From Gammaproteobacteria bacterium (GTDB lineage Bacteria; Pseudomonadota; Gammaproteobacteria; BMS3Bbin11), in NCBI GenBank assembly GCA_036986095.1, contig BTQX01000003.1:1-35111 (forward strand): a stretch of DNA of 35,111 nt, read 5' to 3'. How positions within the stretch are numbered: position 1 is the stretch's first letter; the number at the start of each line of letters is the position of its first letter. Positions 3,064 to 35,111 of this stretch are shown here, piece after piece. The position numbers and the translations under genes were made by a program. Below the pieces are notes generated by a model. It worked only from the letters and a program-made list of their open reading frames with translations, did no database searches and had not been told where the DNA came from.

Positions 3064-5130
3064 ATGCCTTCATCACAACGTCAAATTCTGGTCACCAGCG
3101 CCCTGCCTTATGCCAATGGGCCTCTCCATCTTGGTCATCTTGTTGAATATCTACAAACTGACATATGGGTGCGGTTCCAGAAGATGCGCGGGCATGAATG
3201 CATCTATGTATGTGCCAGCGATGCCCACGGTACACCGATTATGTTGCGTGCCCAGGCCGATGGACTATCACCGGAGGAACTCATTTCTCAGGTGCATAAA
3301 GAGCATGATCATGACTTTGCTGACTTCCTGATCGAATTTGATAATTTCTACACCACGCATTCCGATGAAAATCGTGAATTATCCACCGCCATTTACAGCA
3401 AACTGAAGGAAGGCGGATACATTGACCGACGTACGATTCGCCAGGCCTATGATCCGGAAAAAGAGATGTTCCTGCCGGATCGTTTTATCAGAGGTGAATG
3501 TCCGCGTTGCGGGGCAAAAGATCAGTATGGAGACAATTGTGAGGTCTGTGGTGCAACCTATTCGCCAACCGAGCTGCACAATGCTGTCTCAGCAGTTTCC
3601 GGTGCCACCCCCATTGAGAAAGAATCCGAACATCTGTTCTTCAGGCTGAGTGATTTTAGCAACCTGTTGAAAGACTGGATCCATGCCGGCCATCTACAGG
3701 ATTCCGTTGCCAACAAGCTTGATGAATGGCTGGAACAGGGGCTGCAGGATTGGGATATTTCGCGTGATGCGCCCTATTTCGGTTTTGAGATCCCGGATGC
3801 GCCCGGTAAGTATTTTTATGTCTGGCTGGATGCCCCGATCGGCTATATGGCCAGCTTCAAAAACCTGTGTGACAGAACGGAACTGGATTTCGATCATTTC
3901 TGGCAGGCCGATTCGACTACTGAGCTATACCATTTTATCGGCAAGGACATCACCAATTTCCACTGCCTGTTCTGGCCGGCCATTCTGGATGGAGCCGGCT
4001 ACCGCAAGCCGACCAATGTCTTTGTCCACGGCTTCCTGACCGTCAATGGCAACAAGATGTCGAAATCGCGCGGCACATTTATTATGGCTCGCACCTTTCT
4101 GAATCATCTCCGTCCTGAATATCTGCGCTACTACTATGCGGCCAAATTGGGTGCCGGTGTGGAGGATGTCGATTTGAACCTGGAAGATTTTCAGGCACGG
4201 GTAAATTCTGACCTGGTCGGCAAGGTGGTCAATATCGCCAGCCGCTGTGCCGGTTTTATCAGTAAGAATTTTGCCGGCGAACTGTCTGCTGAAATCCATA
4301 AGCCCGAATTACTGCAGCAGTTTGCTGAAGCCAGTAACAATATTGCCTCATTATACGAAGCGCGTGAATTTGGCCGCGCCATTCGCGAGATCATGGCATT
4401 GGCAGACCTGGCCAATCAGTACATCGATGAAAACAAACCCTGGGTGCTGGCTAAAGAAAAAGACCGCGAGCAGGATGTGCAGGATGTCTGTAGCATGGGG
4501 CTGAATTTATTCCGCATCCTGATCATCTACCTGAAACCCGTGCTGCCCGCTATGGCTACATCAGCTGAGACCTTCCTGAATGTCTCAGCCTTAACATGGA
4601 AGGACAGTCAGCAAGCGCTGACATCACACAGTATCAACCGTTTCAAACCTTTGATGACGCGCATTGAGACCGCAGCCATTGAGGCCATTGTTGAAGAATC
4701 CACCGCCGCACTTGAAACAGACAATATATCAGAAGGGGAAACCATGACTGAAGCCGAAACGAGTACGAATACGAAGGGCCCTCTATCAGCTGACCCAATC
4801 AGTGATGAAATCAGTTTTGATGACTTCGTTAAACTGGATCTTCGCATTGCGAAAATTGTTAAAGCCCAACATGTAGAAGGTGCTGACAAACTGCTGCAGC
4901 TTACGCTGGATCTCGGCGGTGAAACCCGCAACGTTTTTGCCGGTATCAAGTCCGCCTACAGGCCGGAAGATCTTGAAGGCCGGCTAACGGTGATGGTGGC
5001 TAATCTTGCTCCACGTAAGATGCGATTTGGTCTCTCGGAAGGCATGGTACTGGCTGCCGGACCCGGTGGCCGCGAACTATTTATTCTGGGACCCGATGAA
5101 GGAGCAGAACCGGGAATGCGGGTAAAATAA
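3064..5130 (+). CDS. metG: Methionine--tRNA ligase with C-terminal tRNA-binding OB domain
   Basis: [12 protein letters not shown] (HIGH motif), Zn knuckle CPRC...CEVC, KMSKS, and C-terminal DLRIAKI...SEGMVLAAG. Confidence 0.98.
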
Positions 5131-5156
5131 ACAGCCCCGCAACATAAAAATCTACT

Positions 5157-5233
5157 TTGAACCGCAAAGACGCAGAGTACGCAAAGAACTACAAGACAAA
5201 AACCTTGGCGTCCTCTGCGCCTTTGCGGTTCAA
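5157..5233. repeat. Inverted repeat of the ACCGCAAAG variant of the 9-mer periodic family
   Basis: TTGAACCGCAAAGACGCAGAGTACGCAAAG ... CTTGGCGTCCTCTGCGCCTTTGCGGTTCAA directly after metG. Confidence 0.88.
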
Positions 5234-5328
5234 TATTAACGATAAAAGGCCATGAAAGAATACGCGCTTATTTTGTTCGCTGCGATGCGCGAGCGGGATG
5301 CCGCGGATGTACCGCTGCCTTTATCGTA

Positions 5329-5775
5329 TTGAGTATGCCAGCCATGCATGTAACGGCCTTAGCGTTGATAATTGAAGAATATTGCATTGGATGTGCAAAA
5401 TGCATTCAGGCCTGTCCGGTTGACGCCATTGTCGGTGCAGCTAAACAGATGCACACCGTTATCGAAGAAGAATGCACAGGATGTGAGCTTTGCCTGCCGC
5501 CCTGCCCGGTGGATTGTATTGATATGCGTCCTGTAAAATCTGGCATTGGCAACCCAGAAATATGGAAAAAAGAGCAGGCAACCAGCAGGGCTAATCGCGC
5601 CAGACTACGCACCGAAGCAAGAATAGAAAGACTTGAGCGGGTAAAAACAGAGAAAAAAGCGCAACACGCCGCCAGGGCAAAGATGACTGCCGCAAGCTCT
5701 GACAGAAAAAAAGAAATCCAGGCCGCCGTAGCTCGAGTAAAAGCAAAAAAGTCTGAAAATCCTGAAACACCATGA
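5329..5775 (+). CDS. RnfB/RsxB-like 2x[4Fe-4S] ferredoxin, short form (start uncertain: 5329, 5335 or 5344)
   Basis: [46 protein letters not shown], a basic helical tail ending [10 protein letters not shown], and overlap with the nth start. Confidence 0.85.
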
Positions 5776-6407
5776 ACCGAGACAAACGCATACAGATCTT
5801 CGAGCTGCTGAAAAATGAAAATCCCAGGCCGCAAACCGAACTCAGACACAGCTCCCCTTTTGAGCTGTTGATCTCGGTTATCCTCTCTGCCCAGGCCACC
5901 GATATCAGTGTCAACAAGGCCACTGCAAAGCTCTATCCTGTCGCAAACACAGCCCGGGCAATACATGATCTGGGCATTGATGCTCTGAAAGAATACATAC
6001 GGTCAATAGGCTTATATAACACCAAGGCAGAAAATATTATCAAAACTTGTGCTATTCTTATCAATGAGTACGGGGGACAGGTACCGGCAACAAGAGCAGA
6101 GCTCGAGACATTGCCCGGTGTAGGTCGAAAAACGGCCAATGTAGTACTGAATACAGCCTTTGGCAAACCTACCATTGCGGTTGATACACACATATATCGC
6201 ATTGCCAACCGCACCGGGATTGCAAAGGGTAAGACTGTACGTGAAGTCGAGGACAGACTGCTACGACTGGTGCCTGACCAATATAAACAGGATGCCCATC
6301 ACTGGCTGATCCTGCATGGACGATATACCTGCATCGCACGTAAACCACGCTGCGGCAGTTGTATTATTCATGATCTATGTGAATACAGAGCAAAAACAGA
6401 AACATGA
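5772..6407 (+). CDS. nth: Endonuclease III
   Basis: LSAQATD, Hh[17 protein letters not shown], and C-terminal Fe-S motif [17 protein letters not shown]. Confidence 0.97.
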
Positions 6408-7501
6408 GCACAGCCATAGCAACCGGCCTCAGTTACGGCACGCATCCCATCATTGAGCATGCTGCCAGAGCCGTTAGAATCGCTTTAGAAAAGGCCGATA
6501 TCACACAGGCCGAGAGCGTACTGTTGTTTATGACACCGGAATATTCCGATGAGGCTGAAGCTGCCGTTCGCCTGGCCGCACGTACAGCCCGCTGTCTACA
6601 GGTTTCCGGCTGCATCGGGTATGGCATATTGACGGATCATGACTGGATACTGGACAGCCCGGGCATCGCCGCCATGGTTTTTGGCAAAGACACAGTGATC
6701 TCTCCACGCAGCTCTGACACAGCGAAAGCCTTTCTGTCCTTTGGCACACCACAGGGTTTCGACCCGAACTGGCTGCATGATGAGACACCGCATATTGGTG
6801 CCATTGCATCAGACCCCCTGGGACAGGGTAATTACAAACACTGGCAGGGTGCCCGGATAAAAGCGGATAATTGTGTAGAACTGGCCATCAACAATGTCGA
6901 TGCAGGCTTTGCTGTTGCACAAAGCTTTAAAACACTGACTAAACCACACATCATTGCTGCTGCCGAGGGTCTGGACGTGGTCAGCATTGAAGACTCACCG
7001 GCGCTGGATGTACTGCTAAACGCCTTGCCAGCATCGATGAAAAAAAGCGAGCTGCCGCTGCACCTGTTGCTGGGCGGCGTCACCTTTGGCCAAACTGACA
7101 ATGCCATAAACGAAGGCCGCTTCCACCTCGACCACATTATCTCCACCAACCCGGAAAGCCATTCAATCACCCTGACCTCGGAGCTCCAGCCTGGCGAACA
7201 CCTGTTCCTGGCCATCCGCGATACCTATGCTGCCGAACTTGGTATGAAACAGGCTATCGATGCCGCAACAAAAAAACTCCATGGCAAAGCGGATTTCGGC
7301 TTCATGTTCCCCTGCCTGGGACGTGGCCCCTCATTCTACGGCGGCAGCGACAGAGATATAGAAATACTCAGGGAAACGAACCCCGGCATGCCGTTTATCG
7401 GCTTCTATGGTAACGGTGAAATTGGGCCACTAAAGAACGGAAACTATACCTATCAGTATTCGGCAAGTCTGGGGCTCTTCAAAATCAATCGAAAAAAGTA
7501 G
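6404..7501 (+). CDS. FIST N/C domain protein
   Basis: SGCIGYGIL in the N-terminal part; FPCLGRG and GFYGNGEIGP FIST_C signatures. Confidence 0.88.
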   Translation: MSTAIATGLSYGTHPIIEHAARAVRIALEKADITQAESVLLFMTPEYSDEAEAAVRLAARTARCLQVSGCIGYGILTDHDWILDSPGIAAMVFGKDTVISPRSSDTAKAFLSFGTPQGFDPNWLHDETPHIGAIASDPLGQGNYKHWQGARIKADNCVELAINNVDAGFAVAQSFKTLTKPHIIAAAEGLDVVSIEDSPALDVLLNALPASMKKSELPLHLLLGGVTFGQTDNAINEGRFHLDHIISTNPESHSITLTSELQPGEHLFLAIRDTYAAELGMKQAIDAATKKLHGKADFGFMFPCLGRGPSFYGGSDRDIEILRETNPGMPFIGFYGNGEIGPLKNGNYTYQYSASLGLFKINRKK

Positions 7502-7508
7502 ATATACA

Positions 7509-7943
7509 TTGAGTCTCTACGGAAAAGACCGCGGCGGAATGCGGCAGGTATTTTTTAATACCTGGCAGAAGTACAAACAATCCCAGGCTCTACAGGGCGT
7601 TGAGTCATTATTGATTGACGTTATCCTGCTGCACCCCGAATATCACTCCATACTTGAAAATCAGGATAAATACCTGGATTTTGATTTCCCGCCCGAGCAG
7701 GGTCAGGGAAATCCGTTCCTGCACATGAGTCTACACGTAACAATAGAAGAACAACTGTCGATCGATAATCCACCAGGCATCCGCCAACACTTCCAGACCC
7801 TGCAGCAAAGCCGCGACAAACATGATGCGCTACATGTGTTGCTCGAATGCCTGGCTGAAGCGATATGGAAAGCGCAAAGACATGAAACCAGCGAACTGGA
7901 AAAAGATTATCTCGCCTGTATTACCGAACAAGCTCAAAAATGA
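7509..7943 (+). CDS. DUF1841 family protein
   Basis: RQVFFNTWQK, HPEYH, NPFLHMSLHVTIEEQLSIDNPPGIR. Confidence 0.9.
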   Translation: MSLYGKDRGGMRQVFFNTWQKYKQSQALQGVESLLIDVILLHPEYHSILENQDKYLDFDFPPEQGQGNPFLHMSLHVTIEEQLSIDNPPGIRQHFQTLQQSRDKHDALHVLLECLAEAIWKAQRHETSELEKDYLACITEQAQK

Positions 7944-9592
7944 AAGAGTCTAAAGTCTATTCTCTCTCGCTGGGTCCGCAGAGGACGCAGGGAGATCAAA
8001 ATCTTTTTTCTATAAAAAATACACTTTTTTTGTCACTTTTTTTGCTGTTATTTTTTCCCGCTACACCTGGCCTTGCAGCGGGAACAAAAGCATCAAATAT
8101 TCTCCATAGAGGCAACAGCACTGAGCCCGTTACGCTCGACCCACATCAATCAGAAGATGTCTCCAGCGGCAATATACTACGTGATCTGTTTGAGGGCCTG
8201 GTGACAGAAGACGCGGCAGGCAATCTTATCCCCGGTGCGGCGGAGAAATGGACCATCTCCGAGGACGGTCTAACATACACGTTCAAGCTGCGTACCTGCC
8301 TGGCCTGGTCCAATGGCGAGGCGTTGTCAGCCGCTGACTTCATCTTTTCTCTGCGGCACGCACTGGATCCGGACACGGCAGCACCGATGGCAAGCCTCCT
8401 TCTGCCCATAAAGAATGCACGTGAGGTCATGAATAGCAACATGCCAGTAGAAAAACTGGGCATTGAAATGCCGGATGCCCACACCCTGATCATCAAACTC
8501 GAGCAGCCGACCCCCTGGTTTCTGCAAATACTAAGCCACCCGATCGCCTTTCCTGTCTATGCAACTTCCCTGATAAAGGACAAAGACAAGGCCTTCAGTG
8601 CCGGCAACACAATTTCAAATGGGGCATGGACCCTGCAGCAATGGGTTCCATACGAAAAGCTGGTGCTTAACCGGAACACTCATTACTACAATCAGAAAAC
8701 ACTATTTTTTAAACAGGTGGTCTATTACCCGATTGAAACGAGTAACACCGAATTCAGCCGCTACCGCGCCGGTGAATTAGACTGGACCGATACAATTCCA
8801 CCAAACAAGCTTGGCTGGATCAAAAAAAACCTGCCTGGCGAAGCCTTCATCAGCCTTTACCTCGGTACCTACTATTACGGCTTCAACCTGACTCACAAGC
8901 CATTCAAAGGAAATACCGACCTGCGTCAAGCCCTGTCACTGTCCATAGACAGAGCAATTATTGCAGAGAAGATCCTGGGAAATGGTGAGCATCCAGCAGA
9001 CCGATGGCTACCAGCCGGGATTCTGTCCGGGCCCGAACAATCTGCTAGCCGCATGGGTCAAAACCTGAAACTGGCCAAACAACTCTACAACAAGGCCGGC
9101 TACAGTCGCGACACCCCCCTTCACACCACTCTACACTATAACTCCAGCGATCAGAACAAACGCATCGCCATCGCCATCGCCGCCATGTGGAAGAAAAACC
9201 TCGGCATAAAAGTAGAGCTGATCAATGAAGAATGGAAGGTATTCCTCAATAGAAGAAAAAGCAAAACAGAAACACAGCTCTACCGCGCTTCGTGGATAGC
9301 CGACTATAACGACGCCAGCAGCTTCCTGACCCTGTTCACCAGCAACAACGCCAGGAATGATACCGGCTACGCCAGCCCTGTTTACGATGGGTTAATAAAG
9401 CAGATCGAGTCAACAATGGATAACACTGCGAGAGAAAAATTGATCCGGCGGGCAGAGCAACAGTTACTCGATGACCAGGTCATCATACCGATCTACCATT
9501 ACGTCTCACGGCATCTGGTAAAGCCTGATATAAAGGGATACAAGGCGAATCCGCTCGATCATCATTACAGCCGGGATTTGTATCGGGACTGA
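7940..9592 (+). CDS. Peptide ABC transporter substrate-binding protein (OppA-like, family 5)
   Basis: RGNSTEPVTLDPH, DLFEGLV, PGAAEKWTISEDGLTYTFKLR, WIADYND and a signal-peptide-like hydrophobic stretch; the start is uncertain. Confidence 0.92.
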   Translation: MKESKVYSLSLGPQRTQGDQNLFSIKNTLFLSLFLLLFFPATPGLAAGTKASNILHRGNSTEPVTLDPHQSEDVSSGNILRDLFEGLVTEDAAGNLIPGAAEKWTISEDGLTYTFKLRTCLAWSNGEALSAADFIFSLRHALDPDTAAPMASLLLPIKNAREVMNSNMPVEKLGIEMPDAHTLIIKLEQPTPWFLQILSHPIAFPVYATSLIKDKDKAFSAGNTISNGAWTLQQWVPYEKLVLNRNTHYYNQKTLFFKQVVYYPIETSNTEFSRYRAGELDWTDTIPPNKLGWIKKNLPGEAFISLYLGTYYYGFNLTHKPFKGNTDLRQALSLSIDRAIIAEKILGNGEHPADRWLPAGILSGPEQSASRMGQNLKLAKQLYNKAGYSRDTPLHTTLHYNSSDQNKRIAIAIAAMWKKNLGIKVELINEEWKVFLNRRKSKTETQLYRASWIADYNDASSFLTLFTSNNARNDTGYASPVYDGLIKQIESTMDNTAREKLIRRAEQQLLDDQVIIPIYHYVSRHLVKPDIKGYKANPLDHHYSRDLYRD

Positions 9593-9774
9593 AGTTCCAA
9601 GTCTAAAGTTCCAAGTTCCAAGTCAAACACTAAAAGCTTTTCACCACAGAGGACACAGAGAGCACAGAGGAAAGAAAAAAGATTTTAGGTTACAACAAAA
9701 AACCTCTGTGTCCTCCGTGTCCTCTGTGGTTAACTGGTTTTGACTTTAGCTTGGAACTTGGAACTTGGAACTTC
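9591..9774. repeat. Nested palindrome: outer inverted heptamer arrays enclosing an ACCACAGAG-family inverted repeat
   Basis: (AAGTTCC)n at 9591-9627 and (GGAACTT)n at 9739-9774. Inner TTCACCACAGAGGACACAGAGAGCACAGAGG (9640-9670) and CCTCTGTGTCCTCCGTGTCCTCTGTGGTTAA (9703-9733). Confidence 0.92.
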
Positions 9775-9776
9775 TT

Positions 9777-10196
9777 TCAACCCCAATCCGGCTGAAACAG
9801 TTCAACATACTCTTTCACCGAACGTCGTCCTTTCTCGCAATCCTCATACAGATGAAAATTTGCCAGACGTAATTCTGGGAAGCGCCAGCACAAATGTCCG
9901 TCGCCGGTATCAAAATGTACCACCCAGAGATTGCTGGCCGTGACACCCAGACGTTGTAGTTTATCTATCCAGTCCTGTACAACTTTACGATAGGCCGATT
10001 CAACAGTGCTGGCTGAATCATCATTTGCAGTGATACTTGTTTGCAGTTGTGATCTTAATGGCTCCAGCTTTTTATGCGCTGTTGTGGTTATTTTTACTAT
10101 CAGGGGCATCAGTGCCCTCGCTTCAGAAAGAGTAAACACCCTCCCCTCATCCAGTGGAAAAATTTGTGCCACAAAGCGGCTATCCAGTTCGTACAT
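9777..10196 (-). CDS. DUF2203-like protein
   Basis: RVFTLSEARALMPL N-terminus and VHFDTGDGHLCWRFPE motif; start overlaps the murJ stop (TAATG). Confidence 0.75.
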   Translation of the reverse strand: MYELDSRFVAQIFPLDEGRVFTLSEARALMPLIVKITTTAHKKLEPLRSQLQTSITANDDSASTVESAYRKVVQDWIDKLQRLGVTASNLWVVHFDTGDGHLCWRFPELRLANFHLYEDCEKGRRSVKEYVELFQPDWG

Positions 10197-11734
10197 TAGC
10201 CTGACTTTAACATCTCTTTTATTGGTATCTTAAAAGCGAACACCAGTGAAAAATAAACAACTGCTCCCGTCAAAATAAGAATAGTCAATCTACTGATACG
10301 TTCAAGTAAACCGGCATTTATCCATAGCTGAAGATCTCCTGCTCCATAATACAGGGCAACCCCCATGCCTATGCTTGCGATAAGCACCTTAATCAGAAAA
10401 AGCGGCCAGCCGGGCTGCAGATGTAAGACACCCTGCTTGCGTAATGTATAGTACAGCAGCCCGGAATTGACGTAGGCTGAAACTGTCAATGCCAGTGCCA
10501 GCCCCGTGTGGGCCAACGGCTTTATCAGTAGCAGACTAAAAACAATGTTCACGACGACCGAAATCACCGCGATCCTGGCCGGTGTTCGGGTATCCTGGCG
10601 AGCAAAAAAACCCGGAGAAAGCACCTTAATCAAAATCAGGCCAGGCAACCCCAGAGAAAAAGCAATCAGGCTTTTGCTCGCCATGCCGACATCCCAGGCA
10701 GTAAAAGCCTGATACTGGAATAAAGTCGCAAGCAGTGCCTCAGATAACAAGACCAGTGCAACGGAAGCCGGCAGGCCAATTAGCACGGCCCAGCGCAAAG
10801 CCCAGTCCAGTAATGCCGAAAATTCTTCTTTGCTTCTGGAGTGATGGGTATCAGACAAAGCTGGCAGGATAACCGTGGCCAGGGCAATACCGAAAATCCC
10901 TAATGGGAATTCCATCAAGCGGTCTGAATAGTACAGCCAGGTAACGCTGCCAGTCACCAGAAAAGATGCCAGGATGGTATTTATAAGCAGATTAATCTGT
11001 GCCGCAGAACTGCCGATGATGGCCGGAACCATCAATTTGCCGACCTTGCTTACCCCCTCATCCTGCCAGTTGATGCGAGGTAATACGAGTAAGTTCATCT
11101 GACACAATTTCGGGAACTGAAAGAATAACTGCACAAAACCGGCAAGCAACACACCCCACGCCAGGGCAACCGCTGAACCATCCATAAGAGGTGCTAACAA
11201 CAGCGCGGCTGCAATCATACTCAGGTTCAATAATACAGGCGTAAATGCAGGTATTATAAAATGGTGACTGGCATTCATGATGCCGCCTGACATGGCGACC
11301 AGCGAAATAAAAAGTAGATAGGGAAAAGTTATCCGCAACATGCTCACCGTGGTTGCAAACTTCTCGGGTTCGTCCAGAAAACCCGGCGCAAGTACGGTCA
11401 CAATCGCCGAGGACGCCAACACCCCGAGCAGAACAACTAACAAAAGGATCAGGCCCAGCGAGGCAGACATATGACTGATGAACACACGAATCGCCGCCTC
11501 ATCACTTCGATTGCGGTATTCACTTAATACCGGTACAAAAGCCTGTGAAAACGCCCCCTCAGCAAAAATCCTACGAAAGAAATTGGGTATACGGAAGGCC
11601 ACATAAAAGGCATCGGCTGCCAGGCTTGCACCGAATGAGGTTGCCAGCACGACATCACGTATCAGCCCTGAAATACGGGATATCAGGGTCATCGAACCCG
11701 TATTCAACGTGGATTTAACCAGTCCGCCAGTCAT
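10196..11734 (-). CDS. murJ: Lipid II flippase MurJ (MviN)
   Basis: SRISGLIRD, AFRIPNFFRRIFAEGAFSQAFVPVL, LYYSDRLMEFPLGIFGIA; divergent from rpsT. Confidence 0.97.
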   Translation of the reverse strand: MTGGLVKSTLNTGSMTLISRISGLIRDVVLATSFGASLAADAFYVAFRIPNFFRRIFAEGAFSQAFVPVLSEYRNRSDEAAIRVFISHMSASLGLILLLVVLLGVLASSAIVTVLAPGFLDEPEKFATTVSMLRITFPYLLFISLVAMSGGIMNASHHFIIPAFTPVLLNLSMIAAALLLAPLMDGSAVALAWGVLLAGFVQLFFQFPKLCQMNLLVLPRINWQDEGVSKVGKLMVPAIIGSSAAQINLLINTILASFLVTGSVTWLYYSDRLMEFPLGIFGIALATVILPALSDTHHSRSKEEFSALLDWALRWAVLIGLPASVALVLLSEALLATLFQYQAFTAWDVGMASKSLIAFSLGLPGLILIKVLSPGFFARQDTRTPARIAVISVVVNIVFSLLLIKPLAHTGLALALTVSAYVNSGLLYYTLRKQGVLHLQPGWPLFLIKVLIASIGMGVALYYGAGDLQLWINAGLLERISRLTILILTGAVVYFSLVFAFKIPIKEMLKSG

Positions 11735-11911
11735 TTCGATTGCGTGTCTGTTTGCATGATGGCGTAACGCTACCTGATGTCAGTATGCAAGGAAAGAAAA
11801 GAATCGATCGAGAACATAAATTACTATTGATCAGTAACCAGGGCGTAGCTAAAGAAGGGAATAATAGCGTCATCGAGATGCGTACATCAGCGGCTAAAAT
11901 CAGCTTTAAAC

Positions 11912-11940
11912 TTGACAAATCACCCAGAAACAAGGATATT
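11912..11940 (+). promoter_or_regulatory. Sigma70-type promoter of rpsT
   Basis: TTGACA (11912-11917), 17-nt spacer, GATATT (11935-11940), 44 nt upstream of the TTG start. Confidence 0.65.
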
Positions 11941-11984
11941 GCGCGGTTTTCTCAGACTCAGCCCTGTTCCTAGAGGATTAGACA

Positions 11985-12248
11985 TTGGCAAATTCACCTC
12001 AGGCGCGTAAACGTGCCCGTCAAAACACAGTACGCCGCACTCAGAACCACAGTATGCGTAGCATGATGCGTACCTATGTCAAGACCGTTTACGCAGCAAT
12101 CGAAAGCAATGATAAGGAGAAAGCCGTATCCGCTTACCATTCAGCAGTTTCTATTATTGATCGCAATGCCAAACGTGGCTTGCAGCATAAGAACAAGGCA
12201 GCGCGTTTGAAGAGTCATATGAATGCGCGTATTAAGGCAATGGCTTGA
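11985..12248 (+). CDS. rpsT: 30S ribosomal protein S20 (TTG start)
   Basis: MANSPQARKRARQ...RSMMRTYVK...HKNKAARLKS; GAGGA Shine-Dalgarno upstream. Confidence 0.97.
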   Translation: MANSPQARKRARQNTVRRTQNHSMRSMMRTYVKTVYAAIESNDKEKAVSAYHSAVSIIDRNAKRGLQHKNKAARLKSHMNARIKAMA

Positions 12249-12279
12249 GGGTTTGATCGAAATATCAAGAATTTTTGAG

Positions 12280-12307
12280 AGCCGGCCTATTGGTGGGCTT
12301 TTTTTTT
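12280..12307 (+). terminator. Probable intrinsic terminator of rpsT
   Basis: Imperfect stem AGCCGGCC-TATT-GGTGGGCT followed by a long T run. Confidence 0.6.
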
Positions 12308-12609
12308 ACTCGAGCACGTCTGTGGAATTGCCCTTATCTCAGACAGCACATCCCCGAAATCCCCAGTTCATCCTGCTCTTCCTGTATAATTGCCAATACA
12401 GGTAATTCACCTGGTTTTATTTAGATTCGCTATCTAAATAAAAAAGGGTATGGCAGACCGATGCGCTTCAGGTTCTCAAGAAACCGTGGTGGTGCAGCAA
12501 CGTTGCTAGTATAGAACGCTGTGCTATGGGGATTGGGTTTGAGATTTCCCGGCATGGTTCGAGTGGGCGCTTGTTTATCGTTGAACTGGTGATCATCTGG
12601 ATAATGCCA

Positions 12610-13150
12610 TCAGTTCACTGGATGTTTACGGAAGATGATGAAAGCACCGATGGTAAATTTATAGAATATTCAAAAGAACCTGACAAAAGGGAAAAATTTG
12701 ATCCTTCTCTTTATAAAGAAATAGCTGATCTATTAAAAAACAACAATAAAAGAAAAGTCAGCCGTATTGAAAACTCTACAATTTTAAATGGCTGTCATTA
12801 TTTTTCCAGTTTGGTTCCTGATCAAGCCGAAAGTCGAAAACATTGGCTCTCTTCATTACTAACCGCATCCCAAAAGTGCAACTTAATATTTTTAGACCCT
12901 GACATTTGTTTAGAAATAAAATCAAAACACTTATGGGCGTAAAAACTCATCAAAGTTTTTCATATTGGCATGAAGTCTCTACTCTTAGGTCAGCGGTAAA
13001 TCACTATTAATGTTTCAGCACTTAGAGAAAAACGAGAAACATTCATAAAGCGCATGTTAAAAATGCTCGGCGACAATACTAAAGGCTCAGTAGTTGAAAC
13101 ATTTTCAACATCTAATGTTGTATTTTTATTTGTACTTCAACCTGAATCGC
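12610..13150 (+). pseudogene. Decayed AT-rich gene with several frameshifts and no clear 5' end
   Basis: Protein-like text HWMFTEDDESTDGKFIEY...IFLDPD..LEIKSK continues across frame changes as YGRKNSSKF / YWHEVSTLRS / GKSLLMFQH / REKRETFIKRMLKML...SNVVFLFVLQPE. Confidence 0.65.
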
Positions 13151-29094: not shown

Positions 29095-29700
29095 TTGAAG
29101 ATGAAGATGATAATGAGAATTCAAACCACAAAGCGAATAATCGTTTCTATGGTGACGATAATTGTCGTCGCCGCTGGTATGACGAGCAATACTGTCCGGG
29201 CCGCTGAGCTGAAGGAACTGATAGGCGAAGTCGGAATGGCCATGCTCTTAAACCCGGATGAGGCACCCGATTTCGTGCTGAAAAACCTCAATGGTGAGAC
29301 AGTTAAGTTAAGCGACTATCGCAATAAAATTGTACTGTTGAATTTTATGGCGACCTGGTGCCACTGGTGCCAGAAAGAAATGCCGCATTTGCAAAAGTTG
29401 CATGAAAAATTCCGCGACCGAAATTTTGCCATTGTGGTGGTGTTTCAGGACCGGGAAGGTGCGAGTGCCGTCGTGCCCTTTATGAAAGAATACGGTTACA
29501 CATTTGCCATCAGTTCCGGCTTGCTGGATCCCACCGGAGAGGTGGGTGACCTGTATAGTGTAACCGGGACCCCGACGACATTGCTCATTGACCGGACAGG
29601 CAAGGTAATCGCCTGGGGGATGGGGTACCGGGACTGGTTCAGCCAACCATCCATTGATTTGATCGAAAAACTCCTGGAACCGAAGACCAGCAATAAATAA
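29095..29700 (+). CDS. TlpA/ResA-like thiol:disulfide oxidoreductase (start uncertain)
   Basis: APDFVLKNLNG, LLNFMATWCHWCQKEMP, GTPTTLLIDR; N-terminal signal or anchor. Confidence 0.92.
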   Translation: MKMKMIMRIQTTKRIIVSMVTIIVVAAGMTSNTVRAAELKELIGEVGMAMLLNPDEAPDFVLKNLNGETVKLSDYRNKIVLLNFMATWCHWCQKEMPHLQKLHEKFRDRNFAIVVVFQDREGASAVVPFMKEYGYTFAISSGLLDPTGEVGDLYSVTGTPTTLLIDRTGKVIAWGMGYRDWFSQPSIDLIEKLLEPKTSNK

Positions 29701-29712
29701 CGGAACTCACCG

Positions 29713-30558
29713 CTAATCTATCTTAAGCAGCTTTGATTCCAGTTCGATCAGCCATTCTGGAGTGGCAGAGAAGTACGTATTCAGGTCACTGATTGAGCCA
29801 ATCAAAAGTAGTATGCCGATAATCAGCAGCAAAACGCCACTGACGGTCTCAATGATATGTCCGTGGCGGTTGATCTTCTTTAAAAGGCCGGTGGCACGGC
29901 CCAATAACACCGCTGTCAGCAGGAATGGAATCGCCAGTCCCAGGGAGTAGGCAGACAGCAGAGCGGCAGACTTCATGACCGCTGCAACGGGGTCGGTGCC
30001 ATAGGTAGACCCGGCAGCGAGGGTAAGAATGGCACCCAGCAGGGGGCCTATGCAGGGCGTCCATCCCGCCGCAAAGCTCACACCCACCACACCCGAGCGA
30101 ATATAACCCGGTGTATTGCTGTGCTTGGTCTGGACGCGGCGCTCAGGGAGAATGATTGCATCCAGTTTATCGTCGATGGCGACAAGCACCCGATGCAAGC
30201 GCGGCAGTGCTGCCAGCCAGACCTCTCCCTTTTTGATAATGCGGGACATGTGTATCCCCAGAATAATGAGGACTACACCACCAATCTTTGTCAGTATGTC
30301 GGCAAAATCAGTACGTAGGTAGGTGCCAAACACCAGACCCATTGAGGCCCCGATCAGTATGAATACAAAAGAGAAGCCGAGAACAAATACCAACGCATGC
30401 GCGAACATCCGAGAGCGTGATATATTGTCATCATCAGCGACTGAGACACCCGTGAGATAACTGAGGTACACCGGCATCAGCGGTAAAACGCACGGGGATA
30501 AGAATGATAACAGGCCAGCCAATACCGCCAGCATGTAGGTAATGTCTCCAGCGCCCAT
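29713..30558 (-). CDS. ccdA: Cytochrome c biogenesis CcdA (DsbD transmembrane domain)
   Basis: AGLLSFLSPCVLPL and GWTPCIGPLLG, the two PC motifs; YSLGLAIPF. Confidence 0.92.
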   Translation of the reverse strand: MGAGDITYMLAVLAGLLSFLSPCVLPLMPVYLSYLTGVSVADDDNISRSRMFAHALVFVLGFSFVFILIGASMGLVFGTYLRTDFADILTKIGGVVLIILGIHMSRIIKKGEVWLAALPRLHRVLVAIDDKLDAIILPERRVQTKHSNTPGYIRSGVVGVSFAAGWTPCIGPLLGAILTLAAGSTYGTDPVAAVMKSAALLSAYSLGLAIPFLLTAVLLGRATGLLKKINRHGHIIETVSGVLLLIIGILLLIGSISDLNTYFSATPEWLIELESKLLKID

Positions 30559-31086: not shown

Positions 31087-33519
31087 ATGCTGACAGTGAC
31101 GGGATGGCGCAAAATTTTGATCAACAAACGAGCACTAGTGATTTTGTCTATCGTCCTGTTGTTGGCTATTCTCGTCTATAAAAACCCCGTGTCACCGCCC
31201 CCTATGGAGAGCGAACCGGCATCGATTGCATCGGAGCTATCGTCGATCCTGCTGGATGGTCCGGTGGCATACGATCAGGTTAAACCGGTTCTGGAGCGAC
31301 GCTGTGTGGTCTGCCACGGGTGTTTCGATGCGCCCTGTCAGCTGAAACTCTCCTCAAACGAAGGTCTTCGACGAGGTGGCAGTGAAGAACTGGTCTACGA
31401 TTCCAAGCGTATTAGACCTGTTCAACCAACGCGCCTGTTCGTGGATGCCAGTAGCACAGCACAATGGCGTTCCCGCGGGTTTAATTCGGTACTCAATGAG
31501 GGCCAACAGACACCTGAACAAAACTTGAAAAACTCGGTACTATACCGACTACTGCGATTGAAACAGCAGCATCCACAGCCCGGCTCTGACCGGTTGCCGG
31601 ACAGCTTCACCCTGGAGCTTGACCGCGAACAGACCTGTCCAACGCTGGAATCCGTTGATAAATTCTCCCGCAAGCATCCGTTATGGGGCATGCCCTATGC
31701 CATGCCAAATCTTCCCCCACAGGAATACCGTACCCTCGTTTCCTGGCTGGCCCAGGGTTCACCGGCACCGGCACCACCAGGTCCCTCCACCACAGTGCTG
31801 CCGCAGATTAATCAATGGGAAAACTTTCTAAATCAGTCATCCAGCAAACAGCAATTGGTCAGCCGTTACCTCTATGAACACCTGTTTCATGCGCATATCC
31901 ATTTTGCCGGGTCACCGGCACGAGAGGTCTACCGGCTAGTGCGCTCTATCACACCATCCGGACAGACCATCGAAGAGATCCCGACAGTACGCCCCTATGA
32001 TGACCCCGGTGCCGCGCCATTTTATTATCGACTATTGAGATATCATCCAAGTATTGTCTTAAAGAATCATATCGTCTACGAATTCTCCGACCGGCGTATG
32101 CAACGTTACCGTGAACTTTTTCTGGATTCCGATTACACCGTACGTGCACTACCATCCTACCGGCCGGAGATTGCCACAAACCCTTTCAAGGTATTTGCTG
32201 CTATCCCGGTAACGTCGCGTTACCGCTTTCTGCTGGATGATGCGCGTTTCTTTATCGAAGGTTTTGTCAAAGGTCCGGTCTGCCGTGGGCAGGTCGCACT
32301 GAATGTTATTGAAGACCAGTTCTGGGTAATGTTCTTTGACCCAGACCAGGCAGTGTTTACCAATAATGCACAGTTCATCTCAGAAATTGCCGATGACCTG
32401 CAGATCCCGGCTGACCGCCCCGGCAACCTGGATTTGCTCGATATCTGGACAGATTACTGGCAACGTCAGCGGCGCTACATGGAGGCCAAACAGGCCCGGT
32501 TCGAGAAATTCAGTTCGCATAAAATTGATCACGCCATGAACTACATCTGGGACGGAAACGGTGAAAATCCCAATGCGGCCCTGACCATTTTCCGGCATTT
32601 CGACAGCGGCTCAGTAGCGTACGGACTGGTGGGTGGCAACCCCGAAACTGCCTGGGTGCTCGATTACCCACTGTTTGAACGTATCCATTATCTGCTGGTG
32701 GCCGGATATAACGTATACGGCAATGTCGTTCATCAACTGAATACAAGAATCTACATGGATTTCCTGCGTATGGAAGGGGAGGACCAATTCCTGGCCTTCC
32801 TTCCTGTAGCCCAGCGAAAGGTGATACGTGACGCCTGGTATATTGGTCAGCGGCGTCAGATTGAGAAATTGTTTCCTGCGCCGAAGGACTGGTTGAACAT
32901 TAAGTCTGTTAGCGGCTACCAGACTGATGATCCGCAGCAGGAGCTCTACCAACGGATAAAGGACAGGCTTGCCGGCGTGGCACAGCGCGCAGAAGCAATG
33001 AACTACTGTGGCAGTATCGTGTGTAAAAAGCCATCAACCGATATGACCATGTTACGTGTCGATCGTGCCATGAATGAGATTGCACGGATGCAGGGCACAA
33101 AATTACGTGCTTTTCCTGATGTCGCTTTTGTGCGTGTCAGGATGGAAAACCCGGAGCAGGATCTGGCCTATAGCCTTATCCGCAACAAGGCTTACAAGAA
33201 TGTCACCTCCTTTCTTGCAGACGAACGTGAACGAGACCGCTCGGACATCGACCGCGATACCATGACCGTGGTGAAGTGGCTGGAAGGTTCCTATCCAAAT
33301 TTCTTTTTTTCAGTGGCGCTATCAGATATAGAAAATTTCACAAAACACAGCGCGGCCATTCGTAATCACGACGATTATGAAAAGTTTGTTGATCAGTATG
33401 GTGTTAGACGCACCAATCCAGAGTTCTGGGAACTTGCCGACTGGTTCCAGGATGAATACAAAAAAAATAAACCTGTCATGTCGGGATTGTTTGACCTGAA
33501 TCGTTATCTAAATCGCTAG
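31087..33519 (+). CDS. cti: Fatty acid cis/trans isomerase (heme c protein)
   Basis: RRCVVCHGCFDAPCQLKLSS (CxxCH), RYLYEHLF, GFVKGPVCRGQVALNVI, YMDFLRMEGE, SGLFDLNRY. Confidence 0.93.
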   Translation: MLTVTGWRKILINKRALVILSIVLLLAILVYKNPVSPPPMESEPASIASELSSILLDGPVAYDQVKPVLERRCVVCHGCFDAPCQLKLSSNEGLRRGGSEELVYDSKRIRPVQPTRLFVDASSTAQWRSRGFNSVLNEGQQTPEQNLKNSVLYRLLRLKQQHPQPGSDRLPDSFTLELDREQTCPTLESVDKFSRKHPLWGMPYAMPNLPPQEYRTLVSWLAQGSPAPAPPGPSTTVLPQINQWENFLNQSSSKQQLVSRYLYEHLFHAHIHFAGSPAREVYRLVRSITPSGQTIEEIPTVRPYDDPGAAPFYYRLLRYHPSIVLKNHIVYEFSDRRMQRYRELFLDSDYTVRALPSYRPEIATNPFKVFAAIPVTSRYRFLLDDARFFIEGFVKGPVCRGQVALNVIEDQFWVMFFDPDQAVFTNNAQFISEIADDLQIPADRPGNLDLLDIWTDYWQRQRRYMEAKQARFEKFSSHKIDHAMNYIWDGNGENPNAALTIFRHFDSGSVAYGLVGGNPETAWVLDYPLFERIHYLLVAGYNVYGNVVHQLNTRIYMDFLRMEGEDQFLAFLPVAQRKVIRDAWYIGQRRQIEKLFPAPKDWLNIKSVSGYQTDDPQQELYQRIKDRLAGVAQRAEAMNYCGSIVCKKPSTDMTMLRVDRAMNEIARMQGTKLRAFPDVAFVRVRMENPEQDLAYSLIRNKAYKNVTSFLADERERDRSDIDRDTMTVVKWLEGSYPNFFFSVALSDIENFTKHSAAIRNHDDYEKFVDQYGVRRTNPEFWELADWFQDEYKKNKPVMSGLFDLNRYLNR

Positions 33520-33676
33520 GGAACCTCTGATGTGTCTGGTCGAAGTAGATTGCGATCTAAAATATTCAGGCTTGAGGCGAAAACCGCACTTAATAGCTGG
33601 CTATTGCGAAGTTTGTAACGAAAAAACTGGGTGTTTTAGGGGTAAGATACGAGTTCATGAATTGATCAGAGGTTCC
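33520..33676. mobile_element. 157-bp MITE with 12-bp perfect terminal inverted repeats
   Basis: GGAACCTCTGAT (33520-33531) ... ATCAGAGGTTCC (33665-33676). The left flank CTAG contains the cti stop; a second copy lies at 28889. Confidence 0.82.
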
Positions 33677-33885
33677 ATATACATTATTAGAGAAAACTTG
33701 TTACTATCAATAGTTGGAACAACGATACCTTATTCATTTGTGTTATATGTACTGAACTATCACAAATAGAAACAACATCGCCAGTATTGTTGCGTCCATG
33801 AAAATGATTTGTTAATTTCAAGTGAAGCGACTGAAATTTTTCTCCTGACATGCCTGCAGCAAAGAACAGGCAAAGGATATTCTAA

Positions 33886-34248
33886 ATGAGCATGCTAGAA
33901 CAATACGGACTGCTGATTGGCTTAATAATAGGCACTCTGGGTTTCGTACTGAGCCTGTATGCGCTAGCCCGCTCGCTAGGCAAGGCGCGCCAGGAGCCCG
34001 GTAAAGACGTACCTGCCACGTCTGGCCAATTGTCACGCGACCCGGTCTGGGTGCGCTATCACGCGCGCTACTATGGCTACGCGTTATTATTTTTGTCCTT
34101 CGATATGGAAATGGCCTACATGTATCCCTGGGCCGTAGTTTACAAGGAGGTGGGACTGGTCGCCCTGCTCGACATGGGAGTCTTTCTGGCCATTCTGTTT
34201 CTCGGATTGCTATACGGTTGGAGTCAGGGTGCGCTGCGGAGACAATAA
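33886..34248 (+). CDS. Divergent NADH-quinone oxidoreductase subunit A (NuoA/ND3)-like membrane protein
   Basis: Three hydrophobic segments; RYYGYALLFLSFDMEMAYMYPWAVV and LLYGWSQGALR match the NuoA pattern FY..A.LF..FD.E..FL.PWA and Y.W..GAL; 120 aa. Confidence 0.88.
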   Translation: MSMLEQYGLLIGLIIGTLGFVLSLYALARSLGKARQEPGKDVPATSGQLSRDPVWVRYHARYYGYALLFLSFDMEMAYMYPWAVVYKEVGLVALLDMGVFLAILFLGLLYGWSQGALRRQ

Positions 34249-35111
34249 TTGATAACCGGCGCTCGTCAGGGAAGACCCTCCGTATTACGTAGGCTGGTTG
34301 CCACCGCAATGGCCCGAGATCTCGGTGTTTTCATCATTCCAGGCCCCGATATAGCCCGCACCCATGGACTGGATATCGAAGAGGCTGGACTGCACAGGGT
34401 CACCAGCCCACGTCACGCCAGTGTACTGCTGGTGGTCGGTGTTATCCCACCGGTGCTATGCGAGGCTGCAGCGGTTATCTACGCCCAGATGGTACGTCCA
34501 CGAGTAATATTCGCGCTGGGCACAGGGGCGCTTTCTCCCCTGCCTGATGCTGATGTTGTAGGCGATCTTTCACAGCAAGGGCTAATCGACGGAGTAAAGC
34601 TACTGCGCACCGCTATAGCCGAGGGGGCCTTCAGTGAAGAAGTCTCGGATTTTGACGCGCCTGTGCTACAGATTCGTATCGAATACACCTGTCCCATGCA
34701 CCCTGAAATCGTTCGAGACGAACCGGGGTCCTGTCCAAAATGCGGTATGACTTTGGTCTTACGCGAGGCACAGGCCACGGCAGGACATGCGCACACTGAT
34801 CAGCAGGAGGACACATCAACCCATGACCACTGCGATCATCACCACATGGATCATGATGCTCCTGTCGAGTATACCTGCCCCATGCATCCGGAAGTTGTGC
34901 AGGATGAACCGGGATCCTGCCCAAAGTGCGGTATGGATTTGGTGCCCCGCGATGCGCAGTCTGAATCTACCCATGATCATCGCCACATGACTCACGATGC
35001 ACCGGTCGAATACACCTGCCCTATGCATCCGGAAGTCGTGCAGGATGAACCGGGGTCATGCCCTAAGTGCGGTATGGATTTGGTGCAACGTGACGCGCAA
35101 ACTGAACCAGC
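34249..35111 (+). CDS. NuoB-like (Fe-S ligand-less) domain fused to at least 3 heavy-metal-binding YTCPMHP repeats; partial, runs off the window
   Basis: Manual translation from TTG 34249 (alternative ATG 34309) is open to the end: ...[18 protein letters not shown]...[18 protein letters not shown]... then three EYTCPMHPE(I/V)[16 protein letters not shown] units with His-rich linkers. Confidence 0.88.
34681..35087 (+). repeat. Three coding repeats of a heavy-metal-binding domain
   Basis: Units begin at 34681, 34867 and 35008 (spacing 186 and 141 nt). Units 2 and 3 encode an identical core, [26 protein letters not shown]. Confidence 0.93.

Follow-up and report, generated by a model that had tools for sequence, protein, structure and literature searches.

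What does a NuoA-like gene encode when the gene directly behind it joins a NuoB-like sequence to heavy-metal-binding domains (HMBDs)? This question is raised by the last 1.2 kb of a 35,111-nt stretch of gammaproteobacterial DNA, hereafter the window, which is the whole of contig C3 in the genome bin G000 (1.89 Mb in 244 contigs, 72% complete). We find that a horizontally mobile operon of eight genes, which derives from respiratory complex I, begins in these 1.2 kb. The encoded complex retains the membrane arm and a minimal stub of the B and D subunits, and has lost the NADH module, NuoC, NuoI, cluster N2 and the quinone ligands. It has gained one to ten cytoplasmic Cu(I)-type HMBDs, which sit with their His-rich linkers between B and D; its D domain starts with an invariant H..FMSM motif; and its core is lined with invariant methionines in transmembrane helix 3 (TM3) of NuoJ and in NuoK, NuoA and NuoH. 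Since the redox modules and their ligands are lost, this is no redox enzyme of a known kind; very probably, it is a non-redox complex I derivative dedicated to handling copper or other soft metals. Apart from one glimpse in a transcriptome study, the system is uncharacterised, and public records mis-annotate it.

Two abutting genes at the end of the window

The two genes and their parts are as follows (coordinates in the window, strand, description; aa, amino acids):

33886..34248, + strand, NuoA-like gene, gene 1 of the operon; 120 aa, ATG start; Pfam Oxidored_q4, 1.5e-24
34238..34241, + strand, GGAG, resembling a ribosome-binding site, 7 nt upstream of the TTG of gene 2; read from the sequence
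34249..35109, + strand, 5' part of the NuoB-like/HMBD/NuoD-like fusion gene (gene 2); 287 codons, TTG start, open at its 3' side at the contig end (35111)
34249..34680, + strand, degenerate NuoB-fold domain, residues 1-144, without iron-sulfur (Fe-S) ligands; AlphaFold2 and Foldseek
34684..34758, + strand, HMBD copy 1; PF19335, E 1.7e-15
34759..34869, + strand, His/Asp-rich spacer 1; from the translation
34870..34947, + strand, HMBD copy 2; PF19335, E 4.2e-16
34948..35010, + strand, His-rich spacer 2; from the translation
35011..35088, + strand, HMBD copy 3, with the contig end 23 nt further; PF19335, E 1.5e-15

The TAA of the NuoA-like gene (34246-34248) abuts the TTG of gene 2 (34249), leaving no gap between the two open reading frames (ORFs; 33886..34248 and 34249..35109), as a preliminary description of this DNA had stated. 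The NuoB landmarks quoted there, the three YTCPMHP...GSCPKCGM copies and the His-rich spacers between the HMBDs are likewise all found in the translation. The TTG position is consistent with the database gene calls of the homologues P0004 and P0014, which begin MI.GARQG. The NuoA-like protein contains FDMEMAYMYPW, a motif of the family, and is 92% identical to its orthologue in G003, a genome of the same genus. That orthologue has 12 additional N-terminal residues (window region 33850-33885). An in-frame TAA at 33883-33885 makes the window protein the 120-aa form starting at 33886, and this form also occurs in the Thiogranum, Pelagibacterium, Paracoccus and Marinobacter loci.

We called HMBDs by a score above the Pfam gathering cut-off together with a CxxH…CxxC motif. 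Gene 2 shows both, matching PF19335 in three copies at 1.6e-45 and 153.1 bits (cut-off 23.6). The domains are encoded by 132-nt direct repeats (34648-34779, 34834-34965 and 34975-35106; alike 65%, 100% and 86%), and the contig ends 5 nt past the third repeat copy. Because the end falls in the HMBD repeat, the break inside gene 2 is probably one of assembly.

Gene 2 is a three-part NuoB-HMBD-NuoD fusion

Longer proteins were searched with residues 1-150 of gene 2. This returned 115 full-length homologues of 504-1055 aa, nearly all of which carry both PF19335 and PF00346, the NuoD/49-kDa family. Gene 2 is therefore a three-part fusion of a NuoB-like domain, HMBD repeats with His-rich linkers, and a NuoD-like domain. 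The preliminary description had proposed a fusion of NuoB with HMBDs; both of these parts hold, whereas the two-part architecture gives way to one in which the complete protein adds a NuoD-like domain. At least one HMBD is present in 113/115 homologues. Copy numbers run from none (2 proteins) through one (21), two (33), three (29), four (15), five (6), six (4) and seven (3) to ten (2), and the linkers are rich in histidine, with a median of 16% His.

The closest complete orthologue of gene 2 is P0004 (658 aa), which is 84% identical to it over the N-terminal domain. Its full-length model has a predicted local distance difference test score (pLDDT) of 80.8, with confident B, HMBD and D domains and linkers predicted to be disordered (pLDDT <50), and it matches NuoD, 49-kDa, NdhH and HycE chains at about 1e-14. 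By sequence, the best PDB match of the D domain is MbhL (8e-27), and the HMBD matches the N-terminal domain of LpCopA (8ovl, 3rfu). The accessible text of PMC11970713 describes the HMBD-type domain of LpCopA as holding Cu(I) by three sulfurs and argues for a sensor role.

Public records call these proteins 'Ni,Fe-hydrogenase III large subunit', 'formate hydrogenlyase subunit 5', 'NADH-quinone oxidoreductase subunit D-related protein' or 'heavy metal-binding domain-containing protein'. The suspicion that relatives might be mis-annotated in databases was borne out, as homologue genes are filed as NADH-quinone oxidoreductase or hydrogenase subunits.

Both soluble domains have lost their redox ligands

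The N-terminal domain of gene 2 falls short of the curated models for NuoB. Against Oxidored_q6/NuoB (PF01058) it reaches E 0.023 and 14.9 bits, below the cut-off of 27, and against the NCBIfam NuoB models 1e-5, with 17-25 bits set against cut-offs of 116-312. A PF01058 scan of the window genome at E<=0.001 gave no match. A family profile built from 20 homologues matches MbhJ and NuoB/PSST chains over positions 39-92 (6e-8 to 1.5e-7). Modelled by AlphaFold2 with 53 homologues, window residues 1-144 reach a pLDDT of 91.1 and a predicted template-modelling (TM) score of 0.87, and each of the 50 best Foldseek matches of this model in the PDB is a chain of the NuoB/PSST/NdhK/MbhJ/HycG type (E 6e-6 to 3e-4, TM-score 0.43-0.69). 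The similarity to the NuoB fold that had been read from the letters is thus genuine, and the domain is a stripped NuoB fold, recognisable by profile or fold rather than by curated cut-offs.

We take the N2 cluster ligands of E. coli NuoB to be C63, C64, C129 and C158, and matched these residues by eye in an alignment. The segments that hold C63/C64 and C158 are both deleted, and another residue stands in place of C129; therefore cluster N2 cannot be bound. In 77/115 homologues, no cysteine at all precedes the first HMBD.

The D domain is stripped in the same way. In alignment, the NiFe CxxC motifs are missing at both of its ends, where FGPFFPGLPGG and SLDLSPWE stand instead. The quinone head-group ligands, which we take to be H224 and Y273 of E. 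coli NuoCD (letters checked computationally), are both replaced by proline in 10/10 aligned family members. In the canonical NuoD of the window genome the tyrosine is kept, and the His position lies beyond the contig edge. An invariant H-x4-FMSM…D.L.M.W stretch precedes the D domain.

The operon keeps a membrane arm and no redox modules

In G003, Pfam assigns the operon as NuoA, the B/HMBD/D fusion, NuoH, NuoJ, NuoK, NuoL, NuoM and NuoN. A glucoamylase gene comes next, and the operon is preceded, as in the window, by the fatty-acid cis/trans isomerase gene. No NuoC, NuoE, NuoF, NuoG or NuoI, and no intact NuoB, was found in this operon by Pfam scan, nor in the other loci as far as their contigs reach. 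The eight-gene order is colinear in 8/8 complete genome loci from Gammaproteobacteria, Alphaproteobacteria and one Bacteroidota, and in 80/80 metagenome loci as far as each contig extends. Carriers include gammaproteobacterial metagenome-assembled genomes (MAGs), a Thiogranum MAG, Marinobacter vulgaris, Pelagibacterium, Paracoccus endophyticus and Hymenobacter sp. UV11, and a Rubrobacterales contig holds the first two operon genes before it ends. The genome loci were found via the fusion protein. In the scan of genome contigs the HMBD pattern swamped the result, with 8/80 loci being true relatives, and the metagenome scan was for this reason done with a NuoJ-like alignment.

Across phyla, identity is 65-100% for NuoK, 62-92% for NuoA and 35-75% for the fusion. 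The family is small and patchy. Among 1.84 billion sequences, the N-terminal domain has relatives in 151 representatives at E<=1e-3 and in 33 at E<=1e-30. The module is present in 2/10 other genomes of the window's genus, and no strong match was found in 50 genomes of other genera (49 from other families of the class and one from a further genus of the same family). The NuoJ-like gene of the family occurs in 15/81 sampled genomes of the genus of Marinobacter vulgaris.

A separate canonical nuo operon exists in the window genome, with NuoD at the start of contig C54 followed by H, J, K and L, and then L, M and N on contig C17. The membrane subunits of the Nuo-like operon are 29-39% identical to these canonical copies. 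The preliminary description had expected NuoH/J/K/L/M/N-like genes downstream and no canonical nuo operon there, a separate canonical operon elsewhere in the genome, and a complex other than respiratory complex I. All of this agrees with G003 and every locus long enough, with contigs C54 and C17, and with the absence of NuoC/E/F/G/I and the loss of the N2 and quinone ligands.

The public names (NADH-quinone oxidoreductase, hydrogenase or formate hydrogenlyase subunits) and the truncated window copy would fit an ordinary complex I, or an Ehr- or hydrogenase-like enzyme, that is mis-split, badly assembled or decaying as a pseudo-operon. We regard this as extremely improbable. The window genome has its own canonical operon, the cofactor-less architecture recurs intact, its frames open and highly conserved, in 8 genome and 80 metagenome loci, and the truncation is explained by a contig that ends in a repeat. 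Canonical complex I, a [NiFe] hydrogenase and a pseudogene were rejected on the lost ligands, the separate nuo operon and the recurrent intact architecture.

Proton-path residues are kept and the junction is lined with methionines

We compared the membrane subunits of the 8 genome loci with those of E. coli K-12, in an alignment from which the window's own NuoA is absent. The E. coli numbers are those that we take to mark the key residues, and the letters were checked one by one computationally. All eight loci keep E144, D178, K229, H254, H334, H338, K342 and K399 of NuoL; E144, K234, K265, H322, H348 and E407 of NuoM; E36 and E72 of NuoK; and D79 and E81 of NuoA. Among these are the residues typical of antiporter-like subunits, the Glu of TM5, Lys of TM7, Lys or His of TM8 and Lys or Glu of TM12, and the Glu pair of NuoK. 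In NuoN, K247 and K395 are kept, and E133, the TM5 Glu, is replaced by Leu or Val in 8/8 loci. In NuoH, E157 is replaced by Ala or Ser and D63 by Ala, Leu or Ser in 8/8 loci, and the E36/R37 region is absent. NuoJ Y59 is a methionine in 8/8 loci. The replaced residues of NuoH, NuoN and NuoJ all lie in the junction ('E-channel') from the quinone site to the first pump. Among solved structures, each of these subunits matches a complex I or NDH-1 chain best: NuoH that of E. coli (9e-49), NuoM that of Paracoccus (3e-87), NuoL at 2e-69, NuoN NdhB (5e-53) and NuoK NdhE (3e-17).

The same junction is lined with methionines that are invariant and specific to the family: 13 Met and one His in NuoJ, five Met and one His in NuoA, four Met in NuoH, and three Met and one His in NuoK. 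TM3 of NuoJ reads LQIMMMATEMSIMAIFMVMFMMDPGG..M.MTHQ in the family. Met content is 11.1±0.7% in family NuoJ (n=68) against 4.3±1.1% in canonical NuoJ from related genomes (n=30), and 9.3±1.1% in family NuoK (n=66) against 3.7±0.8% (n=30). This is an enrichment of ~2.5-fold for both subunits, with no overlap between the family and canonical ranges, and no Met enrichment was found in the H, L, M and N subunits. At 100° per residue, NuoJ M62, M66, M69, M73 and M77 fall by arithmetic within an 80° arc, forming a stripe of ~22 Å on one helical face.

These findings bear on the main rival explanation, a copper-gated ion translocator in which only H+ or Na+ moves and the HMBD/His array is a cytoplasmic copper switch. 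The intact proton-path residues of NuoL, NuoM and NuoK suit it, as do the long linkers, predicted to be disordered, which would befit a tethered regulatory module; in the accessible text of PMC11970713, moreover, the LpCopA domain is proposed to be a sensor that relieves autoinhibition. We nevertheless consider it rather unlikely. It leaves unexplained the invariant 2.5-fold Met excess of NuoJ and NuoK and the replaced acidic E-channel residues of NuoH and NuoN. One to ten HMBD copies look like capacity or avidity rather than a switch, and extra H+ or Na+ flux has no obvious benefit in copper islands.

A divergent sister operon was seen in the genus of Marinobacter vulgaris (locus L196, G070:C1:917000-936999, minus strand, ~4408-12733). 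It has the order A, B/D, H, J, K, L, M, N and is 27-51% identical to the family. Its 523-aa B/D fusion contains no HMBD, its NuoJ has 9.0% and its NuoK 9.9% Met, and its neighbours are SBF/ACR3-type, FMN-reductase (ArsH-like) and HTH_20 (ArsR-like) genes. This HMBD-less, Met-rich operon suggests that the Met-lined core predates the HMBD insertion or is independent of it.

The module often lies among copper-resistance genes

The 89 loci collapse into 70 non-redundant groups, 52 of which have flanking ORFs (up to five per side, 344 ORFs). These ORFs were called crudely and clustered, and representatives were scanned against Pfam; the counts are raw, with no background control. The families found most often, by number of groups, are an AA_permease_2-type transporter (12), the multicopper oxidase CopA (11), CopB (9), P1B-ATPase/HMA (8), a PEMT/ICMT-like methyltransferase (6), cupredoxin (4) and MerR (2). 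At least one copper-type neighbour (CopA, CopB, P1B-ATPase/HMA, cupredoxin or MerR) lies within five ORFs in 21/52 groups. A recount by BLAST gave 20 groups with copper-type neighbours and 22 with any metal gene, which adds CDF, ZIP and HupE. Because 213 singleton ORFs are unannotated, these counts are lower bounds. Copper-resistance islands are the module's preferred home (21/52 groups, raw count), and the neighbourhoods of homologues are rich in cop genes, in keeping with the expectation that metal genes would be found there.

Single loci illustrate this. CopA and CopB lie upstream of the module in Marinobacter vulgaris. In Hymenobacter, ZIP and CDF genes lie upstream and a gene for an HMA protein downstream. 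The Paracoccus locus has a MerR regulator, and one gammaproteobacterial MAG locus has HupE/UreJ. On pRIdsm_02 of Roseovarius indicus, the module has CDF-CopB-multicopper oxidase-cytochrome c-plastocyanin genes on one side and a Tn7-like transposon on the other, and its genes are annotated as NADH-quinone oxidoreductase subunits. The AA_permease_2 protein (APC superfamily), the commonest neighbour, is typically encoded between CopB and the NuoA-like gene (L182:4968-6314, L109:4601-5950). A small protein with no Pfam match is encoded directly upstream of NuoA in 4 groups.

The neighbourhoods also bear on a second alternative, in which the complex is a membrane-anchored copper buffer, or an importer or metallation device, and net efflux is not its job. 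The high binding capacity of linkers with a median of 16% His and of many HMBD copies would fit such a role, and in some loci a ZIP, CDF or HupE gene is next to the module instead of cop genes. A membrane arm of seven subunits that has conserved proton-path residues and is under strong purifying selection would, however, be a costly anchor, and the neighbours are mainly resistance and efflux genes; we judge this alternative quite improbable. A role in CO2 hydration, as in DAB or CupA, was rejected because cop genes surround the module and we noticed no carbonic-anhydrase-like protein among the operon's products.

Around the window copy itself, the upstream genes encode a fatty-acid cis/trans isomerase, DsbD/CcdA-like and TlpA-like proteins, an LPG-synthase-TM protein and a CDF protein. 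The DsbD/CcdA-like membrane protein and the TlpA-like thioredoxin lie at 29095-30558; homologues of both recur near the module in two close metagenome relatives (L103 and L107), and the pair presumably resembles the Scs copper-sensitivity suppressor proteins. An AT-rich spacer of 366 bp separates the isomerase gene from the NuoA-like gene and holds a 10-nt inverted repeat at 33736-33767 (ATTTGTGTTA / TATCACAAAT, 12 nt apart), a candidate operator. A simple sigma-70-like scan of 33400-34300 for promoters and terminators on the + strand found nothing above shuffle expectation. Elsewhere in the window genome, C38:7504-10236 (L229:505-3237) encodes a P1B-type ATPase of 911 aa that contains three YHS domains and two HMBDs, and whose HMBD DNA is 81% identical over 67 nt to the window repeat.

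A probably related cassette is co-expressed with copper-stress genes in Marinobacter

Literature searches found no report that links HMBDs or copper genes with Nuo subunits, and only one paper bears on the system. In Marinobacter atlanticus CP1, a copper-resistance operon is interrupted by a seven-gene 'nuoADHJKL' complex I-like cassette that includes a 'NiFe-hydrogenase III large subunit' and a hypothetical protein, and all seven genes are up-regulated together with cop and copper-stress genes (PMC8233155, Eddie et al. 2021, accessible text). Likened by description rather than by sequence, this cassette probably belongs to the same family. HMBDs, missing cofactors and methionines go unmentioned in the accessible text of PMC8233155, whose authors suggest that the cassette might gain energy from copper redox reactions.

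Such a copper-redox-driven pump might, for example, couple Cu(I) oxidation to quinone reduction, with copper on the HMBDs or His-rich linkers taking the place of the Fe-S clusters. Besides that proposal for the Marinobacter cassette, the intact pumping subunits are compatible with it, and cupredoxins, a cytochrome c and multicopper oxidase are frequent neighbours. The CopA oxidase and cupredoxin families are periplasmic, whereas the B/D stub is cytoplasmic by homology. The quinone His and Tyr are both proline, the N2 site is gone, and HMBDs on disordered tethers are not wire-like. We therefore hold a copper-redox pump to be very unlikely.

The module is mobile

The module is carried on 13 plasmids, 4 of them conjugative, in Roseovarius, Sulfitobacter, Paracoccus, Nitratireductor, Thioclava, Rubrobacter and Halomonas. 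In the Pelagibacterium chromosome (L025, 7280-9540), TrbI and a serine recombinase (resolvase) flank it, and on a Roseovarius plasmid (L198, 20107-26357) it is flanked by ISKra4 and Tn7-like TniQ, TniB and transposase genes. These two sets of flanks indicate transfer as cargo of mobile elements. With its plasmid carriage and Tn7-like neighbour, the module is mobile.

A putative copper-proton antiporter on a complex I scaffold

Overall, we lean towards a redox-dead complex I derivative that works as a Cu(I)/Ag(I)-H+ antiporter. In this scheme, which we find the most parsimonious, cytoplasmic Cu(I), and perhaps Ag(I), would be captured or sensed by the HMBD/His-rich array, acting as an antenna or gate, and handed to the interface that was formerly the quinone site. 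From there the metal would pass through the Met-lined J/K/A/H module, the former E-channel, to the periplasm. Proton influx through the intact antiporter-like L and M subunits and the altered N would supply the driving force, so that a complex I scaffold would host a Cu+/H+ antiporter of Mrp-like logic. The complex would act upstream of the periplasmic CopA oxidase and CopB, which would handle the exported ion, and it may have spread via plasmids and transposons within copper-resistance islands.

The findings favour the reading of the preliminary description, a complex that would serve ion-gradient-driven metal efflux, sensing or sequestration. Metal specificity, transport direction and energy coupling are what we infer here from these features. 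That the complex is specifically an exporter driven by the proton motive force, with transport deduced from sequence, we put at even chances. Somewhat more tentatively, it may represent a new class of inner-membrane metal pump that combines a redox-free complex I scaffold, a Met ladder in the former E-channel and an HMBD/His antenna.

Several points weigh against the copper-export account. In canonical complex I, the J/K/A/H 'E-channel' has no periplasmic exit. The window's own upstream neighbours include no cop genes, and in 31/52 loci the five ORFs to either side hold no recognised metal gene. The rest of the operon was not found in the 72%-complete bin by tblastn with the G003 operon proteins, which matched only the canonical nuo genes on C54 and C17; the remaining operon genes of the window organism are unassembled or unbinned. 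The metagenome loci were fished with the NuoJ patterns VLQIMMM and MA[IF]FM[VM]M, and since these include M60-62, M69, M73 and M75, the conservation of those residues in the metagenome set is circular; the other methionines are unaffected, and the same methionines are present in the 8 genome loci, which were found via the fusion protein and are hence free of this bias. The M. atlanticus cassette, as described in the accessible text of PMC8233155, has seven genes with no nuoM or nuoN and a short NuoL. Lastly, the HMBD-type domain of LpCopA is argued to be a sensor and not an ion deliverer (PMC11970713, accessible text).

Relation to known systems and significance

Three features of the system go beyond the preliminary description: the fusion ends in a NuoD-like half, every redox ligand has been lost, and the NuoJ/K/A core is lined with Met. 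With complex I and cyanobacterial or plastid NDH-1 the system shares the composition and order of the membrane arm (A, H, J, K, L, M, N), the NuoB and NuoD folds, and the key Lys, Glu and His residues of L, M, K and A. It differs in having no NuoC/E/F/G/I, N2 ligands or quinone His and Tyr, in the fusion of B and D via HMBDs, in the replacement of NuoH E157, NuoN E133 and NuoJ Y59, and in its Met-rich NuoJ and NuoK. Unlike the group 4 [NiFe] hydrogenases (Mbh, Ech, Hyc), its large subunit has neither the N-terminal nor the C-terminal CxxC.

The proposed logic resembles that of Mrp antiporters, which have no redox input and in which antiporter-like subunits carry protons; homology of the NuoL-like and NuoM-like subunits to MrpA and MrpD chains is detectable. 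In Mrp, a module of small subunits homologous to NuoJ/K probably carries Na+. The present module differs in possessing NuoH, NuoA, B and D homologues and in its proposed substrate, a soft metal instead of Na+, and we know of no Mrp with an HMBD or a Met-lined core. DAB (DabAB) and NDH-1MS/CupA are precedents for complex I-type antiporter-like subunits that power non-redox or accessory chemistry at a metal site, and homology between DabB2 and the NuoL-like subunit is detectable. The chemistry of those systems is CO2 hydration at a Zn site, and they have no HMBD, whereas the module is found in a copper-resistance context and not in one of carbon fixation.

Ehr complexes, as described in the accessible text of PMC6349859, are hydrogenase-related complexes without NiFe ligands, and so share with the module a large-subunit homologue stripped in this way. 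By description, they differ from it in being discussed as redox enzymes with partner dehydrogenases (PMC6349859); the module additionally has no small-subunit Fe-S site, and it has a complex I-type membrane arm, HMBDs and a Met lining. The CopA P1B-ATPases and CusCBA share its type of HMBD (PF19335; matches to CusB and LpCopA) and its genomic company. The body of the module is unrelated to them in fold, and its energy would come from the proton gradient, not from ATP or an RND trimer. A Met-based relay for Cu(I) is the mechanism of CusA.

For genome interpretation, the mis-annotation of these genes as NADH dehydrogenase or hydrogenase inflates inferences about respiration and hydrogen metabolism in marine and vent metagenomes. 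Plasmid carriage and the Tn7-like neighbour make the module part of the mobile metal-resistance gene pool. How complex I couples events at its quinone site to the remote proton pumps is a matter of continuing debate. In the module, the redox half is removed, the pumps are kept, and the junction residues (NuoH E157, NuoJ Y59, NuoN E133) are replaced in a Met-lined setting. Should the complex indeed prove to exchange Cu(I) for H+, it would serve as a natural experiment on energy transduction by the complex I membrane arm in reverse, and copper export would have a third energetic solution in addition to P-type ATPases and RND pumps.

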